From Thermoplasmata archaeon (GTDB lineage Archaea > Thermoplasmatota > Thermoplasmata > Lutacidiplasmatales > JAMCUS01), in assembly GCA_049966015.1 (NCBI GenBank), contig JBMFVL010000004.1, positions 1-52,535 on the forward strand: a stretch of DNA of 52,535 nucleotides. Direction: 5' to 3'. Positions 36,001-45,000 of this stretch are shown in pieces. Made by a program: the position numbers. Each line of letters begins with the position of its first letter. Within the stretch, counting starts at the first letter, position 1.

Positions 36001-39000
36001 TTCATGAATGTTTACGATGTACATATCAACAGGTCACCAGTGGATGGAACTATTGTTTCCATCCAACGGATGCATGGTATACACAAACCTGCTTACGGGG
36101 ATATAGAAAAAAATGAAAAAGTGAAATATGGAATTTCGACACCATATAGTATGGTAGATGTAGAAGAGATCGTTGGAATTTTTGCAAGGCGTATTATTCC
36201 TTTTGTAAAAGAGGGGCATATTAACAAAGGGGATAAAATAGGGATAATCATGTTCGGTTCTAGGGTAAATGTTTATATTCATAGTAAAAATGTTGTTGTA
36301 GAAGTTAAAAAAGGGCAGAAAGTAAAAGCTGCCTCAACGAGTATTGCAAGGTGGATCGATGAACATTAAAAGGATAATACCAGATATATTTACATTACTC
36401 AACGGGGGGCTTGGAATAGCGGCTTTGTATTACATATTCGCTGGGAATCTTCTTTTTGCCTCTTTTTTGGTGCTTTCTGCAGGTGGTTTTGATGGATTGG
36501 ATGGGTTCTTTGCACGTAGGCTTAATACGTTCAGCAAATACGGTTCACTCTACGATTCTATTTCAGATTCTGTTTCATTTGTCATAGCTCCATCAATGAT
36601 GGTCATGGTATTTTTTTCAGGATATACTCTGGATTCATCTGTTAAATTTTACATTTCATTTTTCTTGGCTGCACTTGTATTTGCAGCAGGTATTGCTAGA
36701 TTAACAAAATTCACAGTGAAAAGTTCTTCCTTGCCTTACTTTGAAGGAGTGCCGACACCTTTTGTTGCCATTACAATTATTACTGCAATTTTTATCTCTC
36801 ATTTTGTAGAGTATTATCAGTACAATTGGTTTATAGGTATATTGATTGGATACATTGCAATAGCAATGATCCTTCCTATTAAATACCCTAAAGCCAAGAA
36901 TTCAAAAGTATCGTTTTTTTTAGGGATGGTTATAGGAATTAGTATTGTCATAGCCATTGTATTGAAATTGCTTTCGCCTTTCATTTCTTACAATATGGTG
37001 CCTCTAGAAATTTCCTTTTCATTCTTTTCAATGGCCTGTATATTTGGATATATTTTTATGCCATGTTACATAAAATATAAAAATTAAGTCAGTACTTTTG
37101 GTAAATCATTTGTTTCATAGGCCCTTTTTATTTCAAGTGCAATCCTTCTTCCTGTACTCATTTCTTTTCTATGCAGGCCATTTCCATAGGGATGCCCCAT
37201 TGCCATATGTATGTTTGTCCCACCACCTATTCTAGGTGAAAAATCGTACATGTAGGGGTTTAAGTCTTTATCTAAAATCGTCTGTATTGTAAATGGACCA
37301 ATCATTCCTTTTGTAAAATGTTTTTTAGAAAATTCCACTATTTTTTCACCCATAGAAAAGATCTTATCTAGAGATGATTCTCTCAGTGTGGATGAAGCAT
37401 GCCCTATTACTGTATATTCTGGAATTTGATACTTTTTTGGCAGTAATATTTGCTCTATCGCAGGCAATCTTACAAAACCATCTAGAGAGGTTTCGAACCT
37501 CCAGTCTATACCTAATAATTCCAGTTCATTATCAAGAGGAGACCAGAAAAAATCAAAATTAAAAACAGGGCCTATAACGTATTCTTCTATCCGTGCCTTT
37601 TTTAAATCCTCCATTTTTATAACATTTGATTTAAGCAATTGATTGCTTTTTTCTTTGTATTCCTTATATGAAGAACATGTAAAAAATCCCCTTTCAAGCC
37701 TTTTAACTGCATGTGGTAATTTGACTATTACAAGCCTATCTATGTCCTTTGGGTCTTTATATTCTTTAGGGGTATTTATTCCAGCTTTTTCGGCCATCCA
37801 GTAATAATTTTTTTCCATAGTCCTTTCTTCTATGTATAGCATATCTCTGGACCCAAATATGGGAAACATCAATTTTTTTTCTACATCTACAACATCAATG
37901 TAAGATGTTAAAGATCTGTTAGGAACCATTATGACATTTCTTTTTAACATTGATTCTTGAAATCCAGGATTTAATATTTCAGAAAACTTATTTAATGTTA
38001 TGACTTCATTTATAAAACCCTTTTCAATGCCTTTGTATTTTCTGTAATAAAAATATTTGGTATACAGCAACTCCCTACCTTTCTCTGCTAAAACCAAATT
38101 TTTCAGGCCTTCGGTATATGCACCTTCGCATACATCCAATGCAGAGTGAGATCCTATTACAGCTATAACAGGCGTTGACAACACTCTTTCATAAACTTTA
38201 TTTTTTGTCATGGTAAAACATAAAAATTAAAAATTAAAGATTTACTTTACAACGTAGTATCCTGCAGCCTTTTCTCTTACTTTCCTTTTAACAAACCCTT
38301 TGGTTTGAAGTTCCTGCAAAGAGTTCATTACCATTGTTTTTGGCAATTTGCTTAATGTTGTTATCCTTTCTGCTGTTGCCATCTTCTCTTCGCCTGTCAT
38401 CCCAGCTTCTTTCATTATTTTGTATATTTTTTCTGCGTTAGATGAAATACCTAGATCTGCCATATGATCACCTTTACTACCCTGCTTATTTGAATATATA
38501 TATATAAATTTAACTCAAAAATTGATATAATATTTTTAGTATCATTACACATTTAAAATTTAGAAATGATTTTTGCATATACCCTAAAGTGTTTGATATA
38601 GAGGGGCTTTAGAGCACATTGTGCAGATATCATTTAGATGATACTTTAATTATACTTTTACACTTACTAATGTTTGTGTATTTTTTATTCCATCTATTTC
38701 TCTAATTTGTTTCAGTACTATATCCAACCCTTCGTTTATTGTGTCTGCCTCTATTTTGACTATTATGTCAAATTGACCAGTTACCGCATTAACATCTTTT
38801 ATATTTGGCAATCCTTTCAAAGCGGACATAACTGAACTCAAAAACCCTTTTTCTGTTTCTACTAGCACAAACAAAACTTCTTTATTTTTATCTTTTTTCA
38901 TAATCTCACCCCTTATATGATTTCATCAACTTCTCTTTCCAGCAATGTAAGTTGAGAGTTATCAAATGTAGATGCGTATATCGGAATAATAAGAATGGAA

Positions 39001-42000: not shown

Positions 42001-45000
42001 CCGGTGTAAACGTCAACTACATTATTACTGGTAATTATCGTGTTAACACCTTTTTGGCTGTTTTCATAATAAGGGATTTCTGAATGCAGGGGATGTATGT
42101 ATTCCATCCCATTCAACTCACTGCCTTTAAATTCTTTTTCAGTTTTATATACCTGTAAATCTAGTTCGTGAACTAATTGTTGAACATAATCTTTTTGTAT
42201 GATAATGGATTCTGATTTGTTATTAAGTCCAACAGGATAACTTAGCTTCACATATGTTTTATCCGGATTAACTGCAATATTTACCATATTTGGAAGTTGC
42301 CAGATTTTATCAATGTATAATGCCACATATTCTGTTTGGCTGGATTTAAGGTTTACCCTTATAATATAATATTTTTCTCTGGTGTTTTCAATATAATAAT
42401 CGTTGTCTGGAACAGCAGTTTTACATTCAAAGCACCATGGAACAACATGTGAATCGTATACAATTTTACCTCTACCATATAAAATTTTTATAATCTCCCA
42501 TATTTTATTTATTATATTTAATGAAAAAATATCCACTTGCCTATCCCATTCCATCCATATAGCAGATTTGTTCAAAAAGGAGATCATATCCTTTTGGGAC
42601 TCCATTAAAAGTTCCTGCCCTTTTTTGTAAAAATTTATTCTATCTTCTATATTGGAGTAATTTATGTTTTTATTTTGGCTTAAAAGTAATATGCTTTTGA
42701 TTAAAAATGATGTACTGAAACTCGGTTGATATGCAATAGATACGCTATCCCCGTTTAATAAATGAAACTTAGCAATAGCATCTAAAAAGAATTTATTTGT
42801 TAATATTTCTATATCTCTCTGGTTTGTTGGGTAAGGGACATTGAATATTTTGACTTTCCTTTTTCCAGTATAATAACGTTCCGTAAATATTTTGAAATAA
42901 TTATTGACCCAAAACTCATTGTACTCAGATTCTGTTTTAATTGGGTCATACTTGATAGGCAATAAATTTAACATTTATACACCTCAAGGTTAGTTAGAAC
43001 AATCATAATAAATCCTACTTATAATGTAATAAACTATGTATTACTTATTTTTTATTTATTTTATGAGTATTAGTAACAAAGTCAAATTTTTGTATATTTT
43101 TAAGTGTATTGACTGACTTAATTTGGTACTTCTGCTATTTTATTGCCAACAATTTTTTCAAAAATGTACTTTTCGATGAAAAATTATATTACATATCAAA
43201 CTTTACGAAAGTTTACAATGCCAAAAGACAATATGCAAAAAAGATATGATTTTTTAAGCACGTTTTATTCTTCCATGGATACCTTTCCTTTGCTTAGCAA
43301 TAAAGAATATTTTTGGAGAAAAGAAATTATAAAAAAAATCTTAATATACAATCCTAAAAATATATTAGAGATTGGGACTGGTCCAGGCATGATGATCAGC
43401 ATAGGTACAAAGATCAGCAACAATGTAAAATTTATTGGAATTGACGTTTCAATGAAAATGCTGAGAATTGCAAAAAAAAGAACCACTGCAGATTATATAC
43501 AAGCGTCTGGATATAGATTGCCCTTTAGGGACAGATCCATAGATTCGATTATCTTTGCCTTTACATTAACTACAGTTCCAGAAACTGGTTTGTTGGTAAA
43601 AGAATCAGATCGTGTTTTGAAAAAAGGAGGGATTATTGGGATTATTGATGGTAAAAAACCAGATAATAAATTCATGAGAACTTTTTTTTACTTGCTAGAT
43701 GGTGTAGCCATTTTAGCAGGCAATACTCATTTTGAAAGAGATTCAATGCACTTATTTGAAAAGTATCAATATAAGCAAATTTTTTACAAATCCTTTTATT
43801 GGGGACTTACCTTCGTTACTCTTATTAAAAAAGATTCATGATAAACATAGGTTGGTTTCATATATCAATTTCCCATCTATAATAAAAGGAATTTGGGAAA
43901 CGTGAAAATTAGTACCAGATGTAAAGGTCAGTACATTGTATGTTGAATCTAAGGTATGCAATTCTTTTAATGTTATTGCATAATTGTTTGCACTTAGTTG
44001 GGACAGCTCTGATTGGGGGTACAGATGAATTTCATTTGAAAATAGGGCTGAAGAGGACACTTTTACAAAATAATTGTCGATGCTTAATACCACAAAATTT
44101 TGTGTAAAGAGTATTTTGTATGATGCACCGTTTATAGTGGAGGGAAGGGTTATTCCTGTTCCGCTTCCATTAAAATAAAAGTTCAATGTTACATTGCCCT
44201 GTATAGATTCAATTGAATTTATTTTTTGGGCAATTGTATTGGATAATGTATTCAGTGCATATGTTGACAGGGTATTAGATTGGTATATATATGTTATTCC
44301 AAATACGGAAAAAATTATTATAAAAACCGTAATGGTAACCATGAATTTTGAATAAAACCAATCTAGCATCATATTGCACACCTATGTTTTGTATGTACCT
44401 ATATTGACATAAACAATTCCGTTTTTAGATACCATTTTAGTCAGGATTATAACAATTGACGACCCAAAGGTAAAGGGGCTATATCCATTGCTTGTAGTAT
44501 TTGTCATAGGAATATCAGTTGCACCGTTATTAACTTTGTAGTAATAAGCATGATTGTATATCTGGTAAACAATGAGATCAGAATCAATATTAGAAGGGTT
44601 ATTTGAACCTATTATAACCTTTTGGGTATCTTTAGGCAATGTAACAGAAATTACTATGCTTGTGTTTAACCCTCCATTGAATACTTCTATCACAGTTGCC
44701 CCTATAGCATTTATCTGGCCAGATAATTGCTGGATTTGCTGTTGCTGTTCGTAGAATATAAAAAGATTGTACAACAGTGGCAAAACTATAGCTAATATGA
44801 TAACTATAACCAGCAACTCAAATGGAATTGATTCAACCCCACGTTTTTTGTATAAGGATGTTTTTTTATGCAACCACTACCACCTCGTTATAGGCATATT
44901 CTAACCCCCCCGAATAAAATATTCCTGATGAGTAATAAGTTGCAACTACGTATATAATACCATTTGTTTGATGGTTTATTAGAATAGGTGTAACAGTAAA

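Follow-up and report, generated by a model that had tools for sequence, protein, structure and literature searches.

A full-length IleRS-fold protein without aminoacylation motifs as a likely non-catalytic adaptor in Thermoplasmata

The window analysed here, a 52,535-nucleotide stretch at the start of contig JBMFVL010000004.1 of a Thermoplasmata archaeon, encodes a full-length protein of the isoleucyl-tRNA synthetase (IleRS) fold that is under selection and carries none of the aminoacylation motifs. It probably serves as a non-catalytic adaptor that docks through its C-ter B domain and its tail into a KaiC-like network. An adaptor is likelier than an enzyme because the catalytic motifs are lost and yet selection is strong, because this loss recurs beside an intact enzyme, and because C-ter B is the best-kept part of the protein.

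Architecture, motif loss and selection

The features of the gene are given in Table 1. Pfam searches of the 1353-aa protein recovered tRNA-synt_1 (weakly, 49 bits), Anticodon_1, DUF5915, HhH and DUF835 (PF05763; 112.8 bits against a cut-off of 33.1), and the ileS model matched it at 255 bits, below its cut-off of 621. Pfam and NCBIfam searches gave no protein kinase domain, and inspection of the translation by eye revealed no Walker A pattern. The first-pass annotation had described an intact, full-length IleRS-HhH-zinc ribbon-DUF835 fusion that has lost HIGH and KMSKS. Our alignments agree: the frame is open and the HIGH, GxDxHG, QTRGW and KMSKS columns hold unrelated residues. The isoleucine pocket and the editing threonines are lost as well (Thr241 to Ile, Thr243 to Lys). 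As previously noted, the two nearest homologues (94% and 38% identical) keep neither motif; the 94% identical relative is among those labelled isoleucine--tRNA ligase in the database. An earlier count of 101 of 120 homologues with both motifs, made by a loose pattern, rises to 106 when alignment columns are read; of the other 14, 8 have neither motif, 3 retain HIGH alone and 3 are truncated at the N-end.

Table 1. Coordinates of the pseudo-IleRS gene, its features and its downstream neighbour in the window (dN/dS from one pair only)
Feature	Position	Strand	Residues (aa)	Basis or remark
Pseudo-IleRS gene	38913..42974	-	1353 in total	One open frame; Pfam and ileS model
HIGH motif place, lost	42798..42842	-	45-59	Alignment columns
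GxDxHG amino-acid-binding motif place, lost	42699..42722	-	85-92	Alignment columns
CP1 Thr-rich editing peptide	42294..42317	-	220-227	Equivalents of E. coli Thr241, Thr243 and Thr246 replaced
CP1 glycine loop	41964..42005	-	324-337	Editing Asp kept; His333 equivalent is Pro
QTRGW isoleucine-pocket motif place, lost	41283..41306	-	557-564	Alignment columns
KMSKS place, lost	41187..41210	-	589-596	Alignment columns
Anticodon-binding helix	40797..40823	-	718-726	Yeast Arg736 and Arg739 equivalents Lys, Arg741 equivalent Ser
C-ter B domain	40185..40361	-	872-930	Best-conserved part of dead fusions
C-ter C helix with yeast Arg999 equivalent (wobble reader), kept	40056..40091	-		
Helix-hairpin-helix domain	39675..39830	-	1049-1100	Pfam
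Zinc ribbon, two CxxC pairs	39588..39641	-	1112-1129	Read in translation; Pfam Zn_ribbon_3 in family orthologue
DUF835 (inactivated KaiC-like) domain	38931..39326	-		dN/dS 0.014; Pfam
Stand-alone Lrp/AsnC ligand-binding domain gene	38650..38901	-		11 bases after pseudo-IleRS stop, same strand

The predicted structure comprises a whole IleRS fold, with Rossmann, CP1, anticodon-binding and C-terminal parts (pLDDT 82.6, pTM 0.73), and its best Foldseek matches are IleRS2 and yeast IleRS (TM 0.74-0.79; E down to 2e-67), in a model built with mostly active homologues, which favours that fold. The synthetase body is under purifying selection despite the loss of its motifs. Every IleRS-derived part has a dN/dS of 0.06-0.11 (0.064-0.109), alongside 0.050-0.153 for neighbouring genes, all values coming from one pair. 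The Lrp/AsnC gene occupies the same downstream place in the other genome of this family (f1); no neighbour of the fusion gene is shared class-wide, in a clustering made noisy by shadow frames in GC-rich genomes. The 1.4-Mb genome contains 19 KaiC-family matches and 7 DUF835 matches.

Erosion of the fusion beside a second IleRS

The genome also encodes a type 2 enzyme (IleRS2; C16:21545-24409, 954 aa) in which the HIGH-type, GxDxHG, Thr-rich, QTRGW and KMSKS-type motifs are kept; both the re-read motifs and the tree support the earlier statement that this is a motif-bearing IleRS of another clade. All four catalytic patterns are intact in 32 of 32 single-copy native enzymes read; outside family f6, not one of the 51 fusions that come from two-copy lineages keeps all four. 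In f6, the mirror case, the fusions are intact (13/13) and no second copy has KMSKS (0/4). Two-copy lineages thus have one eroded enzyme: in 12 families it is the fusion, in one family the second copy. The same holds inside f20, where the enzyme is intact in the genome with one copy and erosion is under way in three genomes with two. These counts overstate independence, since the genomes are kin. Among the 51 genomes with an eroded fusion, a second IleRS was not found in one (G013, 94% complete).

Dead, intermediate and intact fusions, the three states described in the first pass, were all seen again, although they were not matched to its genome handles, and erosion deepens gradually, with f20 and f21 at the mild end, f3 in between and f13 and f19 at the far end. 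The protein tree derives the pseudo-IleRS from active IleRS-HhH-zinc ribbon-DUF835 fusions; it also groups the fast-evolving dead proteins and was left out of origin counting. On the marker tree a single origin of erosion is rejected (AU p=0.004, LG+G4). The proposal of a pseudo-synthetase therefore stands, whereas its restriction to one family was too narrow, since eroded fusions turn up in 12 of the class's families and lack a single origin. The forms that have eroded furthest are missed by IleRS searches, even where the genome is a complete single contig (G050, G090).

The fusion gene is dispensable in places: it was not found in 12 of 33 f2 genomes, nor in the 2 genomes of f17 and the 11 of f18 that were searched. 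It is not kept wherever DUF835 genes abound: the gene was not found in genus g5, which has 6-10 DUF835 matches, or in f17, which has 5.

C-ter B and the proposed adaptor

Between-family identity of C-ter B is 0.50 in 29 dead fusions and 0.58 in 35 active fusions, as against 0.24 in 17 ordinary IleRS2, of which it is the least conserved region; other regions of the dead fusions reach 0.25-0.29. The domain is basic and aromatic, and its surface residues differ from those of yeast, with Tyr at yeast position 907 in 33/33 and Trp at 910 in 27/33 dead proteins outside f2. In f2 itself it has diverged (identity 0.22-0.31 to the 1353-aa protein). Charging does not need C-ter B here, since intact enzymes that do this job alone, namely the f7 natives and the IleRS2 of this genome, have it deleted.

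The view that the protein is kept as a DUF835 signalling fusion holds in part. DUF835 is strongly conserved in this protein (Table 1), but it is missing from the pseudo-IleRS of both f19 genomes and two of three f10 genomes, where C-ter B is still conserved. These families rule out that conservation of C-ter B tracks the protein's own DUF835. In f22, the IleRS is without a tail and its C-ter B is relaxed, and in 4/4 genomes the conserved form is present on a giant protein that is not a synthetase. The C-terminal module has been copied onto giant helical, Ig-like and longin-fold proteins that have no anticodon-binding domain, and through it giant proteins with a longin fold come to light in a class outside Asgard. 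For the longin-like part of a giant protein, the best ESM Atlas score was 0.80, which we treat as a lead only. Searching for short, free-standing proteins related to C-ter B gave a single fragment, at a contig end.

Even as an active enzyme, the native IleRS of the class has the HhH/zinc-ribbon/DUF835 tail and a C-ter B that is conserved to an unusual degree. We infer that a second job was in place in the active fusion before catalysis was lost. IleRS2 would then have taken over charging, and catalysis would have been dropped at least four times with the second job kept (subfunctionalisation). C-ter B would be the key surface for that job, binding a putative protein partner in trans. Whether the body still cradles tRNA-Ile seems to us evenly balanced; if it does, the network could be informed of tRNA or amino-acid status through the adaptor. 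A 2017 mBio paper on KaiC reportedly proposed that DUF835 interacts with KaiC-like ATPases. Read in this way, nature has run the same experiment in this class at least four times, on each occasion separating the two jobs of a moonlighting synthetase. These recurrences suggest that the non-catalytic job resides in a domain of 60 residues, and would make an archaeal signalling network directly testable by pull-down.

A broader version, which we regard as speculative and rather doubtful, is that a C-terminal tRNA-binding module of IleRS has been co-opted as the docking address of a lineage-specific network of KaiC-like (DUF835) proteins and of giant scaffolds with helical, Ig-like and longin-fold parts. 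IleRS would be a moonlighting hub reporting tRNA-Ile or amino-acid status, becoming a pseudo-enzyme sensor whenever a second IleRS charges, and would represent a repeatedly evolved, archaeal class I counterpart of Gcn2.

Related systems and alternative readings

The active Thermoplasmata fusions, entered in databases as isoleucine--tRNA ligase, share the architecture and the conserved C-ter B with their pseudo-IleRS descendants; the latter lack every catalytic motif and stand beside an intact IleRS2. The HisRS-like domain of Gcn2 (PMC11363354) is similar in its whole synthetase fold, in the loss of adenylation and transfer elements and in fusion to a signalling-type domain. In contrast, the pseudo-IleRS is class I rather than class II, has no kinase, arose repeatedly, can be lost, and has only putative tRNA binding and output. 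LeuRS-I of Sulfolobaceae and LeuRS2 of Halobacteria (PMC9437257; PMC4005665) are archaeal class Ia paralogues beside an active enzyme, with a proposed extra-translational role through tRNA. In the available parts of these sources they activate leucine or charge weakly and have no KaiC-like tail, whereas the pseudo-IleRS lacks even activation motifs and it is the native copy that is disarmed. HisZ (PMC9437257) and ThrRS-ed (PMC7373986) are described as synthetase-derived, non-aminoacylating proteins, a regulatory subunit and a trans-editing factor, respectively; unlike these, the pseudo-IleRS has no known partner enzyme and does not keep the editing residues. DUF835, an inactivated KaiC domain, is listed among the output domains that response regulators of Methanomicrobia and Thermoplasmata carry (PMC5847659), and the available part of that account makes no mention of a synthetase fusion. 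Reviews of synthetase paralogues that we searched list no catalytically dead IleRS, and we found no paper on dead IleRS, the IleRS-DUF835 fusion or Thermoplasmata longin proteins in the literature searched (mostly open-access, without supplements).

A narrower form of the tRNA-cradling step, which we consider unlikely, is a GCN2-like sensor whose body binds tRNA-Ile and reads its charging, the CP1 pocket holding the aminoacyl end uncut, and which signals through DUF835 to KaiC-like ATPases. The whole fold is under selection, and Gcn2 itself provides a precedent (PMC11363354). Binding of tRNA by the pseudo-IleRS, which also enters the main reading, is plausible at about even odds, with residues that point both ways. 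In its favour, all 33 dead proteins outside f2 have Arg or Lys at the positions of both yeast Arg739 and Arg999. Against it in this protein, the equivalents of Arg739, Arg741 and Trp733 are Lys, Ser and Lys, the first of these being Arg in 45/45 active natives; that of Arg736 is Lys and that of Arg999 is Arg. Among f2 proteins, only 9/18 have Arg in the Arg739 column and only 1/18 can be aligned over the Arg999 region; conservation of Arg999 may be structural. The editing Asp persists in 36 of 46 alignable dead fusions, but in only 1/7 of f15, and outside f20, f21 and f23 the isoleucine-excluding His is gone. An Lrp/AsnC ligand-binding gene lies directly downstream in both f1 genomes, but in only 2 of 95 downstream flanks overall. 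In f13 and f19, alignment fails over both the CP1 and the Rossmann half, and DUF835 is missing from the pseudo-IleRS of f19 and of two of three f10 genomes. We know of no output activity of DUF835, which also counts against this reading.

Conservation of C-ter B could instead serve RNA rather than protein, because the domain is basic and aromatic and contacts the tRNA elbow in yeast IleRS (PMC11685878). The protein would then grip tRNA elbows or similar RNA for storage, chaperoning or delivery of tRNA, with no protein partner. Eroded LeuRS paralogues are described as retaining tRNA affinity (PMC9437257). This explanation appears improbable: even in active fusions, C-ter B does not retain the residues that touch the elbow in yeast (Trp900, Pro901 and Lys915), ordinary IleRS2 conserve the domain least, and the module also sits on giant proteins without an anticodon-binding domain. 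Helix-hairpin-helix domains and zinc ribbons are nucleic-acid-binding types, which counts in its favour.

The first-pass annotation had left an editing role open. A trans-editing deacylase acting on mischarged or, as a regulator, correctly charged tRNA-Ile would fit the comparatively well-kept CP1 of f1 and f2 and their catalytic Asp (2/2 and 18/18). In PMC9023258, however, Thr241 and Asp342 form the hydrolytic pair and T243R/D342A is described as an editing-dead mutant, and both threonine equivalents are gone here. The full Thr-rich pattern survives in only 5/51 fusions. Second enzymes keep their own Thr-rich motif (55/55 read outside f6), leaving no editing gap to fill. Editing by the pseudo-IleRS is hence unlikely, and as the explanation of the protein it is very improbable.

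The least credible reading, a decaying relic or mere tail carrier whose synthetase body is on its way out, would suit the gradual erosion from f20 and f21 to f13 and f19 and the missing f2 genes, but it is largely refuted by a dN/dS of about 0.1 throughout the body in the one pair compared, by frames that stay open across 12 families, and by the retention of zinc-binding cysteines and fold residues.

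Loss of the catalytic motifs

The first-pass annotation described an IleRS fusion lacking HIGH and KMSKS beside a second IleRS with intact motifs, and alignment and motif reading show this pair to be real. The fusion (pseudo-IleRS) has Pfam matches to the class I catalytic domain (weak), the anticodon-binding domain, DUF5915, HhH and DUF835, and scores 255 bits against an ileS cut-off of 621. HIGH, GxDxHG, QTRGW and KMSKS are all absent from it in an alignment with 120 homologues, of which, scored by column, 106 have both HIGH and KMSKS, eight have neither, three have HIGH alone and three lack the N-end. 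Aminoacylation has almost certainly been lost. The second IleRS, on contig C16, has all motifs and, among solved structures, comes closest to bacterial type 2 enzymes (IleRS2). An unusual His/Ala-containing spelling of KMSKS, with HIGH present, was also seen in one ValRS, that of the same genome.

Features discussed in the text (f, family; L, locus; G000, the pseudo-IleRS genome)
Feature	Location	Strand	Remark
Pseudo-IleRS	window 38913-42974	-	one open frame, 1353 aa
Stand-alone Lrp/AsnC ligand-binding domain	window 38650-38901	-	starts 11 bases past pseudo-IleRS stop; below usual length cut-off
TrmB-like winged helix	window 38242-38463	-	73 aa; below usual length cut-off
Five co-oriented genes	window 43836-49514	-	
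ValRS	L002:7951-10620 (G000:C1)	+	
Zinc-ribbon/DUF835 protein	L004 (G000:C28:12857-14074)	-	
Winged helix/DUF835/ATPase protein	L002 (G000:C1:46854-49718)	+	
Winged helix/DUF835/ATPase protein	L005 (G000:C5:20180-23128)	+	
Ultra-eroded pseudo-IleRS, f13 and f19	L193:4387-7437	+	also L194, L195, L196, L197
Second IleRS, f20	L134:673-3618	-	
Second IleRS, f20	L135:707-3652	-	
Second IleRS, f6	L131:565-3717	+	type 2; also L132, L145, L146
Giant protein	L212:1107-8180	+	also L213-L222
Giant protein	L210:74-5869	+	
Giant protein	L198:5753-12001	-	

One of two paired IleRS erodes

The names of the homologues suggest the class Thermoplasmata. Across 41 relatives and a sample of 131 genomes of this class, sorted by count of IleRS-like matches, one of the paired IleRS erodes. 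All four catalytic patterns are kept in 32/32 single-copy natives read (of 45 such enzymes) and in none of 51 fusions from 12 families having a second IleRS, the QTRGW pattern likewise being kept in 0/51. Such a second IleRS is present in 50 of the 51 genomes (as fragments only in two, and by search row alone in some); G013 (94% complete) yielded none. Outside f6, GxD, QTRGW-type and Thr-rich patterns are kept in all 55 second copies read; those of f2 that miss the HIGH/KMSKS patterns are, on inspection, spelling variants, and a further HIGH variant occurs in the two f20 copies, which belong to a different clade. One clade of the protein tree holds most second copies. Altered-HIGH IleRS variants are reportedly linked to mupirocin hyper-resistance (PMC10485003).

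Family f20 serves as an internal control, its single-copy genome being intact and its three two-copy genomes eroding. Family f6 is the mirror case: the fusions are intact (13/13 read) and KMSKS or the Thr-rich motif is found in 0/4 second copies read. Having lost both, with the anticodon helix retained and no tail, the f6 type 2 copy is, judging from its sequence, a second kind of pseudo-IleRS. Beyond the class, 201 genomes of the phylum were searched, and the top-ranking matches are either fragments or frames of the length usual for IleRS.

Erosion differs in degree. HIGH and KMSKS-like motifs persist in f20 and f21 fusions and HIGH in those of f3, no such motif is left in f1 (the family of pseudo-IleRS), f10, f11 and f15, and part of the catalytic domain is deleted in f2. 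In f13 and f19 only 950-1020-aa remnants stand, overlooked by the IleRS search; the five were detected later and joined to the set of 51. All five loci also have, near the remnant, a gene for a class II synthetase (Asp/Lys/Asn-type). The fusion gene can be lost as well: searches did not find it in G009 (80% complete), in 12 of the 33 published genomes of f2, or in any f17 or f18 genome searched. Erosion arose repeatedly: with states fixed beforehand, an RpoB+EF-2 tree of 29 genomes (G142 excluded for partial genes) requires three active/eroded changes, f20 contributes a fourth, and forcing 15 eroded or lost lineages together was rejected (AU p=0.004, LG+G4, applied after the tree was seen).

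Conservation and export of C-ter B

Columns conserved across 35 active fusions number 281; eroded proteins outside f2 (n=25) retain 0.92 of the 16 that fall in a 65-residue C-terminal insert, versus 0.52-0.73 of those elsewhere. Mapped to yeast IleRS, this insert is C-ter B (aa 872-930 of pseudo-IleRS), which in yeast (residues 897-948) binds the tRNA elbow via Trp900, Pro901 and Lys915 (PMC11685878). Equivalents of these three are not retained, even in active fusions, and the positions of yeast Leu907 and Asp910 are Tyr and Trp, which may form a docking patch. Between-family identity of C-ter B is 0.58 in active fusions, 0.50 in dead ones (n=29) and 0.24 in ordinary IleRS2 (n=17), of which it is the least conserved region. 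It is entirely absent from some sole, intact enzymes (f7 natives) and from the IleRS2 of the pseudo-IleRS genome. DUF835 is missing from pseudo-IleRS in 2/2 f19 and 2/3 f10 genomes, where C-ter B is retained; the constant part is thus not DUF835. Both have diverged in f2.

C-ter B has also been exported to other proteins. A separate protein of up to ~2400 aa terminates in the C-ter A/B/C module in 14 of 75 genomes searched (f5, f9, f14, f20, f22, f25, f27). The rest of this protein consists of helical repeats, Ig-like (CARDB) domains and an alpha/beta domain that recurs along it, and in f14 and f20 its gene lies directly upstream of the fusion. Its last 520 residues, modelled from 15 sequences (pLDDT 82.0, pTM 0.46), align with the C-terminus of IleRS2 (Z 19.0, rmsd 6.2, 241 aligned) and also with longin domains, that of VAMP7 giving Z 12.5, rmsd 2.8 and 121 aligned. 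In f22 the native IleRS has no tail and a relaxed C-ter B, and the conserved form is on the giant protein in 4/4 genomes, so that the job of this surface is separable from charging. No giant protein was found among the assembled contigs of the pseudo-IleRS genome. The giant proteins are reminiscent of eukaryotic coat adaptors in their longin, Ig-like and helical parts, a resemblance and no more, and merit separate study. In f2 (L037-L054), a head-to-head small gene upstream of the fusion is a candidate aIF5A (read from the opposite strand), followed in 15/18 loci by a long helical-repeat protein in the style of the giant proteins.

A probable adaptor and its genomic setting

We consider pseudo-IleRS to be, with fair probability, an adaptor with a protein partner. 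C-ter B and the tail would let the active fusion moonlight in this role, IleRS2 would release it from charging duty, and the adaptor job would outlast catalysis. A true sensor of charging state is a less likely reading, and an RNA-only binder an improbable one. Retention of tRNA-Ile binding by dead fusions is favoured because all 33 dead non-f2 proteins have Arg or Lys at the positions of the anticodon readers Arg739 and Arg999; both readers are weaker in pseudo-IleRS itself and among f2 proteins, and Arg999 could have a structural role. Editing is very improbable. Work on E. coli IleRS assigns hydrolysis to Thr241 and Asp342 and the exclusion of isoleucine to Thr246 and His333, and finds the T243R/D342A mutant unable to edit (PMC9023258); pseudo-IleRS keeps the Asp, as do 36 of 46 alignable dead fusions (just 1/7 in f15), but Thr241, Thr243 and His333 are replaced by Ile, Lys and Pro. 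A non-hydrolytic CP1 pocket is possible. That the gene is a decaying relic is hardly credible, as it is under purifying selection: against a 92% identical metagenomic copy (a single pair, dS 0.48), dN/dS is 0.014 in DUF835, 0.064 in HhH/zinc/linker and 0.064-0.109 across the five regions derived from IleRS, compared with 0.050-0.153 in six adjoining genes. The AlphaFold model of aa 1-1040 (pLDDT 82.6, pTM 0.73) also resembles entire IleRS2 and yeast IleRS (TM 0.74-0.79), its alignment of mainly active enzymes biasing it toward that fold.

Pseudo-IleRS is comparable in its working to other synthetase-derived pseudo-enzymes, namely the Gcn2 HisRS-like domain (PMC11363354), HisZ (PMC9437257), LeuRS-I and LeuRS2 (PMC9437257; PMC4005665) and ThrRS-ed (PMC7373986); by our tests it belongs to none of them. 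Literature searches of main texts other than the 2017 mBio KaiC paper, which may mention the fusion, turned up no description of a dead IleRS-DUF835, and passages of PMC6393860 and PMC11188069 have no bearing on it.

Between pseudo-IleRS and purP lie the Lrp/AsnC and TrmB-like genes. Lrp/AsnC ligand-binding domains bind amino acids; this gene is in the equivalent position in the other f1 genome and in 2/95 downstream flanks overall. The five-gene set, which also adjoins pseudo-IleRS in the metagenomic copy, includes an Ig-like protein and a 733-aa SH3/amidase/NlpC-P60-like protein, unexpected in a murein-less archaeon. The genome has 19 KaiC-family matches (18 above cut-off) and seven to DUF835, a domain listed as an inactivated KaiC-like output domain (PMC5847659). 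One DUF835 protein (L004) combines zinc ribbons, a low-complexity linker and a C-terminal domain that ends near Gly-Gly and appears ubiquitin-like by eye, and two others (L002, L005), with winged helix, P-loop ATPase and TPR-like parts, resemble STAND-type regulators, also by eye.
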